Source: Candidatus Woykebacteria bacterium RBG_13_40_15 | GTDB taxonomy: Bacteria; Patescibacteriota; Microgenomatia; Woykebacterales; RBG-16-39-9b | Assembly: GCA_001816655.1 (NCBI GenBank) | Contig: MHCP01000014.1 | Coordinates: forward strand, 27,068-91,067 | Direction: 5' to 3' | DNA length: 64,000 bases | Shown here: one piece after another, positions 4,091-64,000 of the stretch | Layout of the letters: the number at the start of each line of letters is the position of its first letter | How positions within the stretch are numbered: the stretch's first letter is position 1 | The notes under the pieces: model-generated | Seen by the model: the letters and a program-made list of their open reading frames with translations, nothing else | What the model was told of the DNA's origin: nothing | Database searches by the model: none | Translations under genes and position numbers: made by a program

Positions 4091-5290
4091 ATGAATGGCA
4101 GATTTTTCAAAAAAATTTTACATACCGGACGGAGATTTGCGGCCAAGTTTTGGATGTTGACTCATTCAAAAGTACAGGTAATAGGAATTACAGGAAGTTA
4201 TGGTAAAACGTATACTACGAGTGCCATTAGTAGTGTACTTTCGGAAAAATACAAAGTTCTACAAACTGATATTAACCTCGATACTCTTTATAATGTTCCA
4301 ATTACAGTTTTAAAACTTTCTGATCAACAAAAATTAGTTTTAGAGTACGGTATTGATCATCCAAAGGAAATGAGCGGGCATCTTTTTGTAGTAAAGCCGT
4401 CTATCGCAGTGATAACTGGTATTACACCAGTTCACGCCGACCCCGCTCATTTAGGATCCCTGGAAAACATTGTTAAGGAAAAAGGAAAGTTAGCTGAAGC
4501 TGCCTCAAAAAGGAAGGGTTGGATAGTAGCAAACTGGGATGATCAACTTGCAAGAAGAATTGCAGAGAGTGTAAAGGGAAAAATTATTTTCTACGGAAAA
4601 AACAGGTATCACTGCCAGTTTTGGGCCTCTCACATAAAGGTTCTTTCAAAAGGAACAAGCTTCAAAATGCATTTCAAAGGCCAAAGCCATAATGTCAAAT
4701 TACAACTTATAGGTAAACATCACGTATATACAGCGATGGCTGCTGTTGCTGTAGGGTACCTTTGTGATCTTAAATGGAGGGAAATAATTCGAGGCTTAGA
4801 AAAAGTTAAACCGCTTCCCGGTCGTGGCAACATTGAACTTGGTCCTAAAGAATCAATAGTTTTCAATGATTCGCGTCGGGCTAACCCCGCTTCAACGGTT
4901 GCGGGGCTCCAAACCTTGGCGGACTTTCCGGCAAAAAGAAAAATTGCCGTTCTTGGAGAGATGGGGGAGCTTGGTGACTATTCCGAGGAAGGACATCGCA
5001 GCGTTGGTAGAAAGGCGGCGGAAACAAAACCTGATTATTTGATTTGTGTTGGAGAGCAGACCAAATATATTGCTGATGAAGCCGAAAAAGGAATGAAAAA
5101 AGGGAAGGTAATTTGGGTCAAAGATGTATTTGAAGCTGCTGGAGCTCTCTCTGGGGTTTTGAAAAAAGGCGACCTCTGGTATTTGAAGGGCTCTCTGTTG
5201 AAACACTTAGAGCGGATCCCTCTAATTCTAGAAGGCAAAGATGTTGATCCTGACGAAATCGCTTCAAAACGCTACGAAGTCTACACTTAA
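4091..5290 (+). CDS. murF: Mur ligase family protein, MurF-like (UDP-MurNAc-tripeptide--D-Ala-D-Ala ligase), lacking the N-terminal domain
   Basis: P-loop GITGSYGKTYTT near residue 33. C-terminal domain NDSRRANPAST...IAVLGEMGELGDYSEE resembles MurF/MurE. 399 aa, shorter than typical MurF. Confidence 0.6.
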   Translation: MNGRFFKKILHTGRRFAAKFWMLTHSKVQVIGITGSYGKTYTTSAISSVLSEKYKVLQTDINLDTLYNVPITVLKLSDQQKLVLEYGIDHPKEMSGHLFVVKPSIAVITGITPVHADPAHLGSLENIVKEKGKLAEAASKRKGWIVANWDDQLARRIAESVKGKIIFYGKNRYHCQFWASHIKVLSKGTSFKMHFKGQSHNVKLQLIGKHHVYTAMAAVAVGYLCDLKWREIIRGLEKVKPLPGRGNIELGPKESIVFNDSRRANPASTVAGLQTLADFPAKRKIAVLGEMGELGDYSEEGHRSVGRKAAETKPDYLICVGEQTKYIADEAEKGMKKGKVIWVKDVFEAAGALSGVLKKGDLWYLKGSLLKHLERIPLILEGKDVDPDEIASKRYEVYT

Positions 5291-5353
5291 TTCTGCATTC
5301 TTAAGTCCCTGTAGTTTGCTTGAAAGCCAGTCAAGTGGTAAAATCAAGCCTAC

Positions 5354-6361
5354 ATGGTAAAACTTTTGGGGATTTTGCTTTTTTCTTTTGCGGCTACTTT
5401 TGCCGCGGCAGTCCCTTTTATCAACCTTTTATATAAGCTTAAGTTTCAACGCCAGCGTGAGGCGCAAAAAGATATTTTTGGGCATTTTACTTCAATCGTT
5501 AATCGTCTTCACGGTTGGAAAGTCGGTACTCCAAACGCTGGAGGAATTCTGATTATTTTGGTCACTATATTTTTCTCTGCCCTCTTTTACAAATTGACCA
5601 AGTATCACCTCAATTGGACAGCCTATATTTTGTATATAACTTTGACTGGATTTGGGATCCTAGGTCTTTATGACGACATTAGAAAGTTTTACGGCTTCAA
5701 AATTGCTGGTGTTTGGGGATTGCGAATTCGTTATAAATTTTTATTACAACTTCTTCTCTCATTACTGATTGGTTACCTTCTTTTTAGTAAAATGGGGTTG
5801 TCTTCAATCCACGTTCCTATTGCTAATTCAAATATAGAGCTAGGGCCTTTTTATATAATTTGGGCAGCCCTCATTGTTTTCGCAACAACAAATGCTGTAA
5901 ATATTACAGACGGGTTGGATGGACTAGCCACTGGTAGCGTTATAATTTCGTTAGTTGCTTTTTGGTACCTGGCTAGTCTAACTAACTTTGGTGATATCGA
6001 TTTATTTATCGCTGTAACTATCGGTTCTCTGTTAGCATTTCTTTACTTTAATATCTATCCGGCTAGAGTGTGGCTTGGTGATACAGGAGCGCTTCCTCTG
6101 GGAGCGATGCTGGCGGTAGTTGCTTTAATTTTGAATGCTTCGTTAGTTTTACCTTTCATTGGTTTAATTTTTGTCGTAGAAGCAGCAAGTTCCCTCGCGC
6201 AAATGCTCTCAAAAGGCCTTTTTCATCAGCGTGTTTTTATCGCTGCACCTCTTCATCACCATTTTGAAGCCAAAGGTTGGGATGAGACCAAAGTAACAAT
6301 GAGGTTTTGGCTTGGAAGCGTAGCAGCAGCCTTTATTGGTGTGTTCATTGCCTTATTATAA
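5354..6361 (+). CDS. mraY: phospho-N-acetylmuramoyl-pentapeptide transferase
   Basis: Polytopic membrane protein with NAVNITDGLDGLATG and HHHFE motifs. Confidence 0.85.
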   Translation: MVKLLGILLFSFAATFAAAVPFINLLYKLKFQRQREAQKDIFGHFTSIVNRLHGWKVGTPNAGGILIILVTIFFSALFYKLTKYHLNWTAYILYITLTGFGILGLYDDIRKFYGFKIAGVWGLRIRYKFLLQLLLSLLIGYLLFSKMGLSSIHVPIANSNIELGPFYIIWAALIVFATTNAVNITDGLDGLATGSVIISLVAFWYLASLTNFGDIDLFIAVTIGSLLAFLYFNIYPARVWLGDTGALPLGAMLAVVALILNASLVLPFIGLIFVVEAASSLAQMLSKGLFHQRVFIAAPLHHHFEAKGWDETKVTMRFWLGSVAAAFIGVFIALL

Positions 6362-6372
6362 CTTGTTCCGTT

Positions 6373-7740
6373 ATGTTGATTATGGATTTCAAAGGTAAAA
6401 AAATTGCAGTAATTGGTGCTGGTGTGGAAGGGCTTTCCTCACTAGAATTTTTTTCAAAAAAAGAAGCCTTACTATTTATATTGGACCAAAAAAACGAAAA
6501 CGAAATTAAAAGAGACAAGTTGGATAGGATAAAAGGTCTTGGCGCTAAAATAATTACCGGCAAAAATTATTTATCAAGCTTATCAGATTTCGATATTATA
6601 GTTCGATCGCCAGGGGTTAGGAGGGATTTGCCAGAAATAGTCCGCGCAGAAAAAAGAGGTGCTGTTGTAACATCACAAACTAAATTATTTTTTGATTTGT
6701 GTCCTGCAAAGATTATTGGTGTTACTGGTACGAAAGGAAAGGGAACAACATCAAGTTTAATCTATGAGATTTTAAAGCAGGCTGGGAGAGAAGTTTTCTT
6801 GGGGGGTAATATTGGAAAGCCACCTCTCGATCTTATTGATGAACTGACTAAGGAGTCCATCGTTGTTTTGGAACTTTCGAGCTTCCAACTTATTGATTTA
6901 GATAAAAGTCCCTACATTGCTGTGATCCTAATGATTACTAGCGAGCATCTTGATTGGCACAAAAGCCCTGACGAATACTTTAAAGCAAAGGAGACGATAG
7001 TAAAGTTCCAGAATGAAAATGATTCTGTAGTTATGAATGCGGATTTCGAACAGTCAAAAAAAATTGGGGATACTTCCCTCGCAAAAAAATATTATTTCTC
7101 CACAAAATCAAAAATAGGGCAAGGTGCATTTGTTGATGAGGACCAGATTGTATCAACCATTGGTAGCCTGCAGGAAGTTGTTAAGATTTCAGATATCAAA
7201 ATTCCCGGTGAGCACAATTTGCAAAATGTTGCGGCTGCGACCCTTGTAGCTGAAATTTTAAAAATTCCTGTTGATGCAATAAGATCAGCGGTTAGGTTAT
7301 ATAAAGGACTTCCGCATAGATTAGAGTTAATAGCAGAAAAAAACGGAGTTCCTTTTTACAATGATTCGGCTTCAACCAATCCGGAAACTACAATAGCTGC
7401 AATTTTGGCCTTTAAAAATCCAAAGATATTAATACTTGGAGGTTCAAGTAAGAACTCTAATTTTGATAATCTTGGAAAAGCGGCTTCCAATGAAAACGTA
7501 AAGGCAGTGATTCTGGTAGGACAAGAGGCAATAAGAATAAAACAGTCTTTGGAAAGAGCTAATTTTAAAGGACAGATCGTTGAGAATGTTGAAGAAATGC
7601 AGGGCGTTGTTGGTAAGGCTGTAAGTTTAGCCAATATGGGCGACGTTGTAATTCTTTCACCAGCGTGCGCCTCTTTTGATCAATATAAAAATTACATCGA
7701 GCGAGGGGAGAAATTCAAACAAGCTGTAAGAGAGTTATAG
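6373..7740 (+). CDS. murD: UDP-N-acetylmuramoylalanine--D-glutamate ligase
   Basis: KIAVIGAGVEG Rossmann N-terminus and GVTGTKGKGTTSS P-loop. Start moved to the ATG at 6373 to avoid overlap with mraY. Confidence 0.8.
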   Translation: MLIMDFKGKKIAVIGAGVEGLSSLEFFSKKEALLFILDQKNENEIKRDKLDRIKGLGAKIITGKNYLSSLSDFDIIVRSPGVRRDLPEIVRAEKRGAVVTSQTKLFFDLCPAKIIGVTGTKGKGTTSSLIYEILKQAGREVFLGGNIGKPPLDLIDELTKESIVVLELSSFQLIDLDKSPYIAVILMITSEHLDWHKSPDEYFKAKETIVKFQNENDSVVMNADFEQSKKIGDTSLAKKYYFSTKSKIGQGAFVDEDQIVSTIGSLQEVVKISDIKIPGEHNLQNVAAATLVAEILKIPVDAIRSAVRLYKGLPHRLELIAEKNGVPFYNDSASTNPETTIAAILAFKNPKILILGGSSKNSNFDNLGKAASNENVKAVILVGQEAIRIKQSLERANFKGQIVENVEEMQGVVGKAVSLANMGDVVILSPACASFDQYKNYIERGEKFKQAVREL

Positions 7741-59415: not shown

Positions 59416-61260
59416 TTAATAGGAGTTTAAATCAAGTTTTCTTATTCGGATGTTTTTAGGGGTGACTTCCACGATTTCACTATCATTGATATATTCCAAA
59501 GCCGCCTCTAAATGCATCTGTCTCGGAGCATTAAAATGTTCTGATACTCCTTCCCCGCTGGAACGGTGATTGGTTTGCTGCTTTTCTTTGCAAACATTGA
59601 TTCGGATATCATCGATCCGGGAATTTTGACCAATTACCTGCCCGGCATAAACCGGAACAGATGGGCCAATGAATAGATCACCTCTCCCTTGAGCTGCAAT
59701 TAAACCATAAAGTTTGGTAGTACCATTTTCATGGGCAACGAGAGATCCTCGATCGCGGGCGTATGAATTGCCGGAATTTCTCCGATATTCTAAAAAGGAG
59801 GAATTAATTATTCCCAAACCACGAGTATCGACAATAAATTCACTTCTGTAACCAAAAAATTCTTTTGTAGAAATAATAAACTCAAAACGCACCACGCCCT
59901 CTTCAGTAGTCATGTTCTGCAACTCCCCATGGCGCACACCCATTTTTTGGATTACCACACCGGAATAAGTTTCTGGAACTTCAATCAAGACCCTCTCAAA
60001 AGGAGTCAGTGTTTCTCCATTGATACTTTTCTCAATCACTTCGGGTCTGGAAACTTGGAACTCATAACCTTCCCTTCTCATTCTTTCAATTAAAATTGCC
60101 AAATGCAGTTCTCCTCGTCCCAAGACTACCCAACCTCCTGCTGTCGCTTGCCCTGAGGACATTCGGCTGAGCTCAGTCGAAGTCCTTGTTGAAGGGTCTA
60201 CCCGCAAGGCGACATCCGTTTCCAGTTTCCTATACAATCTTTCCTGAATTTGTCTGGTTGTTTTAAATTCACCTTCTTTGCCAGCAAAAGGGGAGGCGTT
60301 AACGCTAAAAGTCATTCGCACTGTCGGTTCCTCTATATTAAGCAGCGACAAAGCCAGGGAGGCTTGTCCCAAACTAGCTGAAGGGTCAGCTATCGTATCC
60401 CCACAAGTAATTTCAGGAATACCAGACACCGCTACAATATCACCTGCTACTGCTTCCGGAGTGTCCACTTTCCCCAATCCTTCAAAAGTCATTAGAGATG
60501 TGAGACGCATTTTTTTCATCTCGCCAGAGCGGTTAATATGCATTACATCTTGACCAGCCGTAATTTTACCGCTGTAAATTCTGCCGACGGCAATCCTGCC
60601 CTTAAAATTATCACCAATGGTAAAGGTAACAAGCATTTGCAGGGGTTTGTTTATGTCGCCTACGGGAGCTGGAATATATTTCAAGATAGCTTCAAAAATG
60701 GGGGAGATATCGACCATTTTAGCGAGATCCGGCTCTTTTGCAGCCTTACCATACTTGCTTGAGCAATAAACAGTTGGAAAATAAGCAGTCTCTTCATCTG
60801 CTCCCAGTTCCAAGAAAAGATCGAGAGTTTTATCTAAAACGTGATGGGCTCTGGCGCCGCTCTTATCTACCTTGTTAATTACGACAATTATTTTGTGTCC
60901 CAGCTCCAAGGCTCTTTTTAAAACAAACCTGGTTTGGGGCATTGGCCCTTCTTTAGCATCAACTAAAAGCAGGCAGCCATCTGCCATTTTTAAAACTCTT
61001 TCTACTTCTCCACCAAAATCAGCATGTCCCGGGGTATCAATTATATTTATCTTGATCCCGTTCCAGACAACAGAGGCATTTTTGGAAAAAATAGTGATTC
61101 CCCGTTCCTTTTCTAAATCATTACTGTCCATTATAAGTTCACTGCTTTCAGTAAACCCTTTTCCTAAATTAGTTTTGGATTGGTGAAGCAAGGCGTCCAC
61201 TAAAGTGGTCTTGCCGTGGTCAACATGGGCGATAATTGCAACGTTTCGAATTTTATTCAT
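59416..61260 (-). CDS. typA: translational GTPase TypA/BipA
   Basis: NVAIIAHVDHGKTTLVD, DTPGHADF, NKVD. Start trimmed to MNKIRNV. Confidence 0.85.
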   Translation of the reverse strand: MNKIRNVAIIAHVDHGKTTLVDALLHQSKTNLGKGFTESSELIMDSNDLEKERGITIFSKNASVVWNGIKINIIDTPGHADFGGEVERVLKMADGCLLLVDAKEGPMPQTRFVLKRALELGHKIIVVINKVDKSGARAHHVLDKTLDLFLELGADEETAYFPTVYCSSKYGKAAKEPDLAKMVDISPIFEAILKYIPAPVGDINKPLQMLVTFTIGDNFKGRIAVGRIYSGKITAGQDVMHINRSGEMKKMRLTSLMTFEGLGKVDTPEAVAGDIVAVSGIPEITCGDTIADPSASLGQASLALSLLNIEEPTVRMTFSVNASPFAGKEGEFKTTRQIQERLYRKLETDVALRVDPSTRTSTELSRMSSGQATAGGWVVLGRGELHLAILIERMRREGYEFQVSRPEVIEKSINGETLTPFERVLIEVPETYSGVVIQKMGVRHGELQNMTTEEGVVRFEFIISTKEFFGYRSEFIVDTRGLGIINSSFLEYRRNSGNSYARDRGSLVAHENGTTKLYGLIAAQGRGDLFIGPSVPVYAGQVIGQNSRIDDIRINVCKEKQQTNHRSSGEGVSEHFNAPRQMHLEAALEYINDSEIVEVTPKNIRIRKLDLNSY

Positions 61261-61354
61261 AAGAAAAAGCCGCTCTTTGCGGCGTTTATATGATACCATT
61301 TTAAGCTTAAATTTACAAATCAAGTTTAAACCAATCGGAAAACTACGGCATTTG

Positions 61355-61825
61355 TTAGTAGCTGATTACCTGCAAATTAGGAACCTTATCGAATTCCTTT
61401 TTATTTTTTGTAACAATAGCTTGAAGGTTAAGATCTTGCATATAGGCTAGGTGAAAAGCATCGCGTGGGCGAAAGTTAAAACTACCAATGTTCTCTATAA
61501 CCTGTCTCACACCTGATTCAAAGTCGTTTTCAAATTGAATTATTTTTATGTTTTCTGGTAATTTTCTTATTTCTTCTAAAATTCGTTTAATCTCCGAATA
61601 AAATTCCTTAATTGGCTTTCTTTTCTCCTTAGGTATGTCTTTTTGTGAAACTTCATATATCTTGTACCAAGCCTCATCTAATCCCAGGGTGGAAATATAG
61701 GTTACGCAATTTTGCTTTAGTAAATTAAAAAAGAGCAATCTGCTTGCATTATGATCATTGTGGTCATCCAGAAAATATGCGATTAGAAAGTTTGCATCAA
61801 GATATATTTTCTCTGGCAAACCCAT
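61355..61825 (-). CDS. PIN-domain nuclease (VapC-like)
   Basis: YLDANFLIAY (Asp1), LDEAW (Glu), RPRDAFHLA (Asp). 156 aa. Confidence 0.65.
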   Translation of the reverse strand: MGLPEKIYLDANFLIAYFLDDHNDHNASRLLFFNLLKQNCVTYISTLGLDEAWYKIYEVSQKDIPKEKRKPIKEFYSEIKRILEEIRKLPENIKIIQFENDFESGVRQVIENIGSFNFRPRDAFHLAYMQDLNLQAIVTKNKKEFDKVPNLQVISY

Positions 61826-61829
61826 AAAT

Positions 61830-62198
61830 TCAATAAATCGAGGTATTATAAATTTTTATTATGTCAATTTTTTCTTCAAGCCTAATTGCCCCCGCAGTTT
61901 TAAGGAGAAATTGCCTTTTTTCATCCGACAATGTGTAAAAGCTATCACCAACTAACTCAAGCCACTCATTTTCTTTTTGTTGATTTTCTAACGAGGGTAA
62001 CCTTTCAATATAAGGCAAGGGGCCATAAGCCTTTTTATCGATTTCGTCTTTTGGAAATAATTTTGTCGGCCAAGCTGTGTCTATATGCTCATCTATATTA
62101 AGAGTACCTGCCGTATCTTTATGTGGATTGACAAGTAAATCAAGTAGTACTGGGTTTTTAGAAAAATCAGATGTAAAATCAGATGTAAGACTTGGCAT
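61830..62198 (-). CDS. hypothetical protein (middle gene of the PIN operon)
   Basis: 122 aa with no recognisable domain. N-terminus contains TSDFTSDF, encoded by a 12-nt tandem duplication. Confidence 0.35.
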   Translation of the reverse strand: MPSLTSDFTSDFSKNPVLLDLLVNPHKDTAGTLNIDEHIDTAWPTKLFPKDEIDKKAYGPLPYIERLPSLENQQKENEWLELVGDSFYTLSDEKRQFLLKTAGAIRLEEKIDIIKIYNTSIY

Positions 62199-62199
62199 A

Positions 62200-62823
62200 T
62201 TATCCTTTCACAAATTTATTAATCGCTTGTTCAATCTCTCTATAATCAACCAATAGCTCTTTAGCTAATTTTGTAAAATCGATTTTTCCTGTTTCATAAT
62301 GTACGTTGGTATGCGCTTCTAATTGTTTTTCTTGCCCGCTAGGAACTATTTGTATATCAAACTTCCGACCTAATTTACTGAAGACAACTCTTGCTCCAGC
62401 TTCTAATAATTTGCCTCCATTTATAAGACTTTTAAGGCTAGGTGATAAAAGTTTTTCATAAGAAATATCTTCCTGTAATTGCAACGATATATCGTAGTTA
62501 TAACCGTAAGCCCTAAGCGTAGATTTACCGATAAAGGCTTTATATACTTTTTCAAAATCGCCTACAACCTTCGATTTAGATGGATCTTCTACACTAGCAT
62601 CACTCACTCGTAATCTATTTGGTTCGATAACGACTTCTTTCTTAAGAGTAGGTATAATCAATACTTTTGTTCCAGGCAGTTCAATAAAAGGGGTATTTAC
62701 CCTCTCTGAAGCTTCTAAATCGAATAAATCTCTTATAGTATCACTCGTAATTTGAGATTGATCTATTTTGTCGAAAAGAGCGGTTATATTTAATTTCTTC
62801 AATTGTAGGTTTTGAATCTTCAT
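62200..62823 (-). CDS. hypothetical protein (first gene of the PIN operon)
   Basis: 207 aa with no recognisable domain. 1-nt gap to the next gene. Confidence 0.35.
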   Translation of the reverse strand: MKIQNLQLKKLNITALFDKIDQSQITSDTIRDLFDLEASERVNTPFIELPGTKVLIIPTLKKEVVIEPNRLRVSDASVEDPSKSKVVGDFEKVYKAFIGKSTLRAYGYNYDISLQLQEDISYEKLLSPSLKSLINGGKLLEAGARVVFSKLGRKFDIQIVPSGQEKQLEAHTNVHYETGKIDFTKLAKELLVDYREIEQAINKFVKG

Positions 62824-62975
62824 ATTACTTTCCTGAAGCTATTCTAGCAGAAATCACTTAGAGTGGCTACTACGCAAAAATTTTTCTTACCTCACCACCT
62901 TTTTGCAAACTTCCAAGAAGCATTATTTTCATATTGTCCATGTGATTATTTTTATCTTACAACAAAAAATGATAG

Positions 62976-64000
62976 AATGTTAGCCATGAAAAACAAAATT
63001 GCAATTTTAGGATTTGGCGGAACGATTGCGATGGTTCCAAATAAAGAAGGTACTTTAGTTCCAGCCAAGGGCGTTGATGAACTTATTTCTTTCGTACATA
63101 AGATTAAAGAATTAGCAGATGTAACCCTCGTACAGCTTGAAAATCTAGATAGTACAAATATAAACCCGACTCATTGGACTAAACTGGCAAATAAAATAGC
63201 CCAGGTTTACAAAGATTACGATGGTATTATCGTCATCCATGGTACAGATACAATGGCTTATACCGCAGGAGCAGTTGCACTAGCTGTAGGTAAAGCTTTA
63301 TCAATACCAGTAGTCTTTACTGGTTCGCAACTTCCAATGATTGAAACAGGTACTGACGCTCCTTTCAATCTAGAAAATTCAGTGAAAACGGTTTTACAGG
63401 CAATTAGAGAAGGTATAGCTGAGGTAATGATAGTTTTTTCGGATAGAGTGTTGAGGGGTGTTCGCGCTATCAAAACTAGTGAATCAAAATTCGGGGCTTT
63501 TGATTCTCCCGCCTTTCCTTATCTAGCCCAAATAACGGCAACTGGAGTTTCATTTAGCCCTTTAGCCCTCAAAGCTACTAAAAATAAAACCAATGAATTA
63601 AAGATAAATGGGCATTTCAAGAGTGATATCTTGGCTATTGACCTAGTTCCGGGATTAGAACCAGGGATATTAAGAAAGACAATAAAGTCTGGAAATATTC
63701 AAGCTTTGCTTCTCAAGTCTTTAGGGGCTGGTAATGTTCCTTCCATTGAACCATATTCGTTTTTGCCTCTGATAGAAGAAGTGGTTAAGGATGGTATCCC
63801 AGTTCTAATCTCAACCAAGTTTGTTGGCGGAAAGACCATTTTAGACCTTTATGAGCCAGGCAAAAAGGCCCTCGAGGCTGGTGCTATTCCCACAGGAGAT
63901 ATGACTGATGTTATGTCCCAGGTAAAGCTGATGTGGCTTTTAGGCAAAGGCTTTACCTCAATGGAAGATTTGAAGAAAGAAATACTTACTGATTATGTCG
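62976..64000 (+). CDS. ansA: L-asparaginase (type I), 3'-truncated by the window end
   Basis: IAILGFGGTIAM and HGTDTMAYTA motifs. The ORF runs off the end of the window. Confidence 0.8.

Follow-up and report, generated by a model that had tools for sequence, protein, structure and literature searches.

VapBC modules place the gene of a PIN RNase last in a tight operon, with the gene of a small acidic partner upstream, and they are mobile and patchily distributed. The operon described here, which we call A-B-PIN after its three genes, resembles VapBC in all of these respects. It differs in having three genes instead of two, the extra one being a 207-aa first gene, and its middle product, B, matches no AbrB, RHH, PhD or HTH DNA-binding domain. 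TAC systems, in which a HigBA, MqsRA or HicAB pair is accompanied by a SecB-like chaperone, offer a second comparison. There, as here, the third protein is constant and the toxin-antitoxin pair is exchanged. The putative antitoxin B is also predicted to be disordered, and a short motif at one of its termini is a candidate handle for the third protein. However, A shows no similarity to SecB or to any other chaperone, and SecB was not retrieved by the fold search with A; A is encoded first and not last; the putative handle is N-terminal in B, whereas the ChAD of TAC is C-terminal; and the toxins of A-headed cassettes are PIN and HEPN proteins. Omega-epsilon-zeta and paaR-paaA-parE also have a first gene that is separate from an antitoxin without a DNA-binding domain, but their first genes encode RHH or HTH repressors and A has no such fold. 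Finally, TIGR04255, a "sporadically distributed" NCBIfam family, shares with A the operon position, a similar size (236-255 aa) and a mid-protein motif, R-[IL]-G-x-R-Y where A has AYGFNY, but A misses the TIGR04255 model and the profile-profile comparison is not significant.

Our literature search found no description of the A-B-PIN module or its architecture, nor of TIGR04255. Judging from sequence comparisons, A-B-PIN is an undescribed type of three-gene PIN module, of the toxin-antitoxin kind, with putative functions for its products. The explanation that we prefer, at slightly better than even odds (about 0.55), is a mobile three-gene toxin-antitoxin-like cassette in which PIN would be the toxin, B the antitoxin or adaptor and A an accessory controller; here we infer the toxicity, the binding partners and the biochemical role of A.

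Layout of the operon and properties of its proteins

The window is a stretch of 64,000 nucleotides from contig MHCP01000014.1 of Candidatus Woykebacteria bacterium RBG_13_40_15. An earlier note, made from its letters alone, had reported three tightly packed minus-strand genes ending in a PIN gene, and this layout is borne out by the coordinates (Table 1), by gaps of 1 nt from the A stop to the B start and 4 nt from the B stop to the PIN start, and by a match of the last product to the Pfam PIN domain (PF01850, E=5.3e-9, 37.2 bits against a gathering cutoff of 23.6). The GC content is 32-33% across A-B-PIN, compared with about 40% on both flanks. The listed typA ORF downstream begins at an upstream TTG, but translation probably starts at the ATG at 61260, shortly past the hairpin listed in Table 1. 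This hairpin could be the operon terminator. It may also belong to the host locus and not to the cassette, because it lies in the non-conserved flank just before the typA-like start.

Table 1. Positions of the operon features in the window, and contexts of related cassettes (L numbers denote loci)
Feature	Position	Strand	Details
Gene A	62200-62823	-	207 aa, ATG start
Gene B	61830-62198	-	122 aa, ATG start
PIN gene	61355-61825	-	156 aa, ATG start
Exact 12-nt tandem repeat in B	62163-62186	-	Encodes TSDF-TSDF, T5 to F12
Conserved promoter/leader of the cassette	62824-62885	-	Promoter scan and alignment to relatives
-35-like TAGCCA	62869-62864	-	Promoter scan
TG-extended -10 TAGAAT	62846-62841	-	Promoter scan
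AGTAGCCACT, near-palindrome	62871-62862	-	One mismatch from the perfect palindrome AGTAGCTACT of close relatives
GC-rich hairpin, then T-run	61269-61283	-	72 nt past the PIN stop
TypA/BipA-like GTPase gene	59416-61260	-	
Asparaginase-like ORF	62986-64000	+	Runs off the window end
Context, window			typA and asparaginase flanks
Context, L001			Restriction-modification gene; tRNA-Arg (7492-7569) 12 nt past the PIN stop
Context, L002			Lon, GreA; tRNA-Glu (5110-5183) upstream
Context, L004			Phosphatase, response regulator
Context, L134			SBP_bac_5, SecG; tRNA gene at 75-146
Context, L136			AAA_15/AAA_21, excisionase-like HTH
SDH-type ClpP-like protease gene, L017	1550-2632	-	Upstream of A
SDH-type ClpP-like protease gene, L095	3436-4461	+	Upstream of A
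SDH-type ClpP-like protease gene, L132			341-aa ORF, upstream of A

In the PIN protein, D10, E51 and D122 are found in every clade sequence aligned at these sites (30, 31 and 31 of 31, respectively). The fourth acidic site is D in 29 of 31 relatives but N141 in the window (TKNKKEF; codon 61403-61405), and one other clade member also has N there. The RNase of the window copy may therefore be attenuated, weak or inactive.

Homologs of A fall into 48 clusters with at least 48% identity, found only in metagenomes and in MAGs of candidate phyla such as Candidatus Shapirobacteria. An exhaustive HMMER search with an A profile extended the family to 165 clusters (50% identity) at E<=1e-3; among the best 150 of these 165, lengths range from 69 to 229 aa and are mostly about 200-225 aa apart from fragments. 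The family shares the motifs NIT, AYG[FY]N[YF]D and H.N.H. Pfam gave no match for A or for 117 family members, and PDB sequences gave none for the family. A itself has no NCBIfam match, no PADLOC-DB v2 match at E<=1 (nor does the PIN protein) and no meaningful PHROG match. As far as these searches go, A is an undescribed protein family. The earlier note had proposed AlphaFold models of the two upstream proteins, and these differ greatly in quality. A is modeled confidently by AF2 (pLDDT 93.8, pTM 0.88) as two similar halves, in each of which a long strand leads into short helices, three or four strands and a final long helix. The family alignment shows no exception to G107 and N109 and keeps N12, R70 and N173 at 90% or more, while the subset selected by motif has almost no variation at H171, H175 and D111; by strand periodicity, N12, G107, N109, D111, H171, N173 and H175 would lie on the helix-free face of the sheet. 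A Foldseek search of the model against the PDB retrieved no good match, the best being AdoMetDC (TMq 0.34), and SecB was absent from the 50 listed PDB matches, in line with the lack of a Pfam SecB match in A and the 117 members. Several folds were considered for A and set aside: matches to Bet v1, CYTH and lipocalin folds were scattered (TM<0.3), a TBP-like topology suggested by the order of secondary-structure elements was dropped as unproven with no TBP match, and a BFVD match (A0A515MGR4, TM 0.70) is an unnamed and uninformative protein.

B is acidic (pI 4.8 in the window, 4.1-5.3 across the family) and is predicted to be disordered when alone (AF2 pLDDT 45.8); only the conserved C-terminal part tends to form helix. 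Its layout comprises an N-terminal strand-like LTSDFTSDF, a variable middle and a conserved C-terminal stretch of about 45 aa (EW..LVG..FY.LS....F...TAG...). The 12-nt tandem duplication at the start of the gene had been pointed out before and is indeed an exact repeat. LTSDFTSDF or a close variant (TADFTFDF, TSDFISDF) is kept in most B homologs, which makes the doubled motif an old feature under selection, not a product of recent slippage. The homologs form 41 clusters, all from metagenomes or candidate-phyla MAGs, again including Candidatus Shapirobacteria. B and 13 diverse homologs have no Pfam, NCBIfam or PDB sequence match; no similarity of B to a known antitoxin or VapB could be detected, and B has no PADLOC match (PADLOC-DB v2, E<=1) and no meaningful PHROG match. 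The earlier statement that neither upstream protein has a recognizable HTH, AbrB or RHH fold agrees with these searches, which returned no such match to A or to B.

The scan predicts a sigma-70-like promoter upstream of A. About 65 nt upstream of A can be aligned among the window, L001, L002, L136 and others, and the farther flanks cannot. The 10-bp palindrome AGTAGCTACT lies at -49 in five close relatives, and other palindromes are found upstream of the distant members L004, L059, L236 and L238. It is conceivable, if unlikely, that A autoregulates transcription of the operon, comparable to omega or PaaR, by binding the palindrome over the -35 element, B being an antitoxin without a DNA-binding domain of its own. 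Such a role would suit the first position of A, the lack of an HTH, RHH or AbrB match in B, the palindromes in close and distant members (with one mismatch in the window) and the basic pI of A in five of the six close-family copies (8.5-9.5; 6.2 in L004). Across the family, however, pI has a median of 5.8 and exceeds 8 in only 27 of 117 members, and A has neither a recognizable DNA-binding fold nor a PDB match. The conservation of the palindrome is not independent evidence, since the whole leader of about 65 nt is conserved in close relatives, and short palindromes in AT-rich DNA could arise by chance. Moreover, an 85-aa protein or TIGR04255 can replace the first gene without a shared operator.

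Recurrence and mobility of the cassette

A-B-PIN is a real, conserved and horizontally mobile three-gene cassette. Its gene order is kept in six unrelated neighborhoods, with wholly different neighbors where contigs are long enough (Table 1), and the conserved sequence runs from about 65 nt before A to the stop codon of PIN. Because the three genes recur together elsewhere, A-B-PIN is a true unit and not a set of chance neighbors. One locus (L135:335-971) holds a decayed cassette with an 88-aa A fragment, an intact B and no PIN gene. The earlier note had read the operon as a non-canonical tripartite toxin-antitoxin or defense-type module and had pointed to co-occurrence of the genes in other genomes as a check. 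That reading gains support from the finding that A and B travel with PIN as one cassette, in at least six unrelated neighborhoods, with toxicity and neutralization as its conjectural part. The possibility that the upstream genes are housekeeping genes unlinked to PIN was also raised there, and the result was the reverse: A and B are restricted to certain lineages and linked to PIN.

A scan of GTDB species genomes for the A motif yielded at least 15 true members. Among the matches listed, the bacterial members belong to Saccharibacteria, Liptonbacteria, Nealsonbacteria, Peregrinibacteria, Parcubacteria, Taylorbacteria, Shapirobacteria, unclassified Patescibacteria and Anaerolineae, the only archaeal one is a Woesearchaeota, and five A-family members stand in an A-B-PIN context. 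No homolog of A was found by tblastn against INPHARED phages, and an A-motif scan of IMG/VR viral contigs gave four chance matches and no family member. In three CPR genomes a gene for an SDH-type ClpP-like serine protease (PF01972) lies directly upstream of A-B-PIN (Table 1), and this protease may be a fourth, optional component of the cassette. A-like paralogs of 207 aa (MNITAKHIQRSNI...) occur without an RNase in Saccharibacteria, Parcubacteria and Taylorbacteria (L034, L038, L084, L108 and L114 among the matches listed), where they sit between membrane-anchored proteins of 415-615 aa and about 555 aa, near GT2-like and beta-lactamase-like genes. Given these five paralogs, the A family is therefore not exclusively RNase-linked.

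PIN domains also function in rRNA and tRNA maturation, and the window copy stands among core genes (typA and asparaginase). One might accordingly picture A, B and PIN as a lineage-specific housekeeping complex for RNA processing, with no role in conflict. We regard this as highly improbable: the cassette lies at a different position in every genome examined, most genomes of the same phyla have no homologs, one copy has decayed, the alleles of PIN and A are mosaic and GC dips over the cassette. A mobile toxin-antitoxin-like cassette remains the preferred reading.

In three of the six close-family loci (L001, L002 and L134), tRNA genes are located within 12-400 nt of the cassette, and in L002 a tRNA-like T-arm fragment lies between tRNA-Glu and A. 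The tRNA genes near the cassette may be integration hot spots.

Exchange of first genes, middle genes and RNases

In six cassettes whose A proteins are 86-93% identical, the PIN proteins form two types with only 53-57% identity between them. The PIN type is mirrored in the last 30 residues of B, whereas the rest of B tracks A. In the close family, the N-terminal part of B gives rho 0.86 with A and 0.27 with PIN. Across all 19 A-type triads, the C-terminal part of B gives rho 0.84 with PIN and 0.66 with A. This pattern is supportive rather than decisive for a B protein whose C-terminus would contact PIN and whose N-terminal part would relate to A; physical linkage together with a recombination breakpoint inside B could yield an identical co-variation pattern.

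We also searched JGI metagenomes at the DNA level for the PIN motif Y.DANFL[IV]A, using a degenerate pattern, and classified the matches with custom-built HMMs. At least 43 loci match the custom PIN profile. Unlike bicistronic VapBC, and in support of the module proposed in the earlier note, all 33 informative loci among the matches listed (strong PIN match and enough upstream sequence) have a B-like gene directly upstream of PIN and a further gene before B. This first gene belongs to the A family in 17 of the 33, to a family of 232-257 aa, here called A2, in 11, encodes a protein of 85-129 aa in four, and is a genuine TIGR04255 protein in one (L252; NCBIfam E=2e-38). The C-terminal stretch of about 45 aa of B (..IG.DLF..LS....F...TAG.IDFG..ID...Y) is conserved across all four first-gene types, while the remainder of B varies. 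A2 has no usable match in Pfam, NCBIfam, PADLOC, PHROGs or PDB sequences. A and A2 are collinear from residue 1 in an hhalign comparison with a probability of 15% (E=0.0018), which is only suggestive of a relationship.

The RNase can be exchanged as well. In Anaerolineae and on three metagenome contigs, the gene after A encodes a 188-239-aa protein and the next one a 127-132-aa protein assigned to HEPN (Pfam HEPN, E=0.018-0.035; PDB "HEPN domain-containing protein", E=0.012); L119 has this arrangement of A, unrelated middle protein and HEPN. The HEPN-linked middle protein (B-long) has no detectable relation to the PIN-linked one (B-short; hhalign probability 0.08%) and no usable match in Pfam, NCBIfam, PADLOC, PHROGs or PDB sequences. 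The middle gene thus switches with the RNase type, B-short going with PIN and an unrelated protein with HEPN, and A stays constant. In a Nealsonbacteria MAG (L103), A precedes a pair of 184-aa and 96-aa proteins; directly downstream of this A-headed operon (L103:3030-4152), an HTH-Panacea (SocA-like) antitoxin gene and a gene for a 117-aa partner form a small toxin-antitoxin island.

A can also precede a complete MNT-HepT pair (L073). This adjacency, together with the invariant or near-invariant polar residues that probably line the helix-free sheet face of A, would fit an enzyme or a small-molecule or nucleotide sensor through which B or PIN is modified or gated, with a logic like that of type VII toxin-antitoxin systems or of signal-activated defense. 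The polar residues of A (N12, R70, N109, N173, H171/H175/D111) would be more in keeping with an enzyme or ligand binder than with a chaperone. We nevertheless consider this explanation improbable: no catalytic fold is recognized in A, whose best PDB match is the weak one to AdoMetDC; no counterpart of the polar residues can be seen in A2 or TIGR04255, although both fill the same place in the operon; and the adjacency at L073 occurs once and may be coincidental.

The toxin-antitoxin-like reading accounts for these exchanges as follows. Since the middle gene swaps with the RNase and the first gene stays, the middle protein is likely the cognate inhibitor and the first protein a toxin-independent controller. 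The cassette would be transcribed from its own promoter. PIN would be the effector, a Mg-dependent RNase, and B its cognate inhibitor or adaptor, whose C-terminal 45 residues or so would fold onto PIN and block it. The N-terminal LTSDFTSDF of B would tie B to A, whose compact alpha/beta fold is pseudo-twofold and presents a conserved polar face of its beta-sheet, and A would control B by stabilizing it, presenting it or sensing through it, as the SecB-like chaperone does in TAC. If A were lost or titrated, or B proteolysed, the RNase would be freed. A TAC-like logic is favored because B is predicted to be disordered, because it has a terminal motif and because a dedicated protease gene is occasionally present. 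Several observations count against the preferred reading: B resembles no known antitoxin and A no chaperone, the polar residues of A point more to an enzyme or ligand binder, five A paralogs stand in an RNase-free context, the PIN of the window copy has N141, and neither PADLOC nor the INPHARED and IMG/VR searches gave a true match.

TIGR04255 operons and a possible wider class

On the Thermus brockianus plasmid pTB1 (L256, NZ_CP016313.1, 201176-202864), three successive genes encode a PGAP-annotated TIGR04255 protein, a hypothetical protein and a HEPN protein. The HEPN gene is an unannotated 130-aa ORF (5297-5689 in the locus) of the same family as the A-linked HEPN proteins (custom profile, E=1e-24), and the operon adjoins VapBC, a DNA methylase and cas6. 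The plasmid is also an example of the architecture of first gene, middle gene and HEPN from a cultured organism. TIGR04255 precedes B and PIN in L252 and HEPN in pTB1, and therefore takes the same position as A, before the same two kinds of RNase. In sequence, A and four diverse family members had no match to the NCBIfam TIGR04255 model (cutoff 30 bits) at E<=1, and neither did A2; the first gene of L252 (E=2e-38) was the positive control. The hhalign probability was 0.2% for A5 against three TIGR04255 sequences, and the comparison of A2 with TIGR04255 was not significant. The middle protein of pTB1 likewise has no significant similarity to B-long.

The first 15 residues of all middle proteins, as judged by eye, have an alternating pattern of hydrophobic residues and T, S, N or D, for example LTSDFTSDF, LT.DF, LTLNNLT, DTTFFNASD and, in a Phocaeicola plasmid, SLTTYINTN. 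By the same visual judgment, this strand-like pattern is common to B and to the unrelated HEPN-linked middle proteins, and it is a candidate handle for the first-gene protein. A tentative, and to us rather doubtful, extension is that A, A2 and TIGR04255 are one structural superfamily and define a broad class of tripartite RNase conflict systems, in which the first protein grips the N-terminal strand of the middle protein and releases PIN or HEPN when triggered, for example by phage infection or proteotoxic stress. The grip would be on the pseudo-symmetric beta-sheet, the tandem TSDF-TSDF matching the two halves of A, and the class would extend over CPR bacteria, DPANN archaea and Chloroflexota and, via TIGR04255, over Thermus and Bacteroidota plasmids.

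The sporadic distribution of a mobile cassette with mosaic parts, the exchange between PIN and HEPN effectors, and defense-type neighbors in L001 (restriction-modification), L136 (AAA_15/AAA_21), L103 (Panacea toxin-antitoxin) and pTB1 (VapBC, methylase, cas6) are all compatible with anti-phage abortive infection, in which A or TIGR04255 would sense a phage cue and B-PIN would be a held-back effector. We consider this quite improbable, given that no PADLOC match was obtained and that the neighbors in the window are housekeeping genes. It overlaps with the toxin-antitoxin-like explanation that we prefer rather than excluding it, and a role in phage defense is compatible with all the other readings.

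The cassette is apparently one member of a broader, undescribed class of three-part RNase systems whose carriers are mostly ultra-small bacteria and archaea. If our preferred reading is true, toxin-antitoxin and defense biology would gain a new three-component architecture, with a new type of antitoxin and a new family of controllers, and TIGR04255, a family named in NCBI annotation with no paper in the literature searched, would have its first functional context. The cassette would then join a small number of conflict systems that typify CPR and DPANN organisms, whose tiny genomes have little known immunity and are expected to retain only modules that pay. The swappable first genes and the exchange of PIN and HEPN provide experimental handles.

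One further TIGR04255 locus is found on a Phocaeicola massiliensis plasmid (L257, OY726032.1, 1563-5621), where an integrase gene is followed by genes for a TIGR04255 protein (255 aa) and for proteins of 115, 209 and 313 aa. The 115-aa protein carries the N-terminal SLTTYINTN, and the 209-aa and 313-aa proteins are of no named family. This locus may represent a further effector type.
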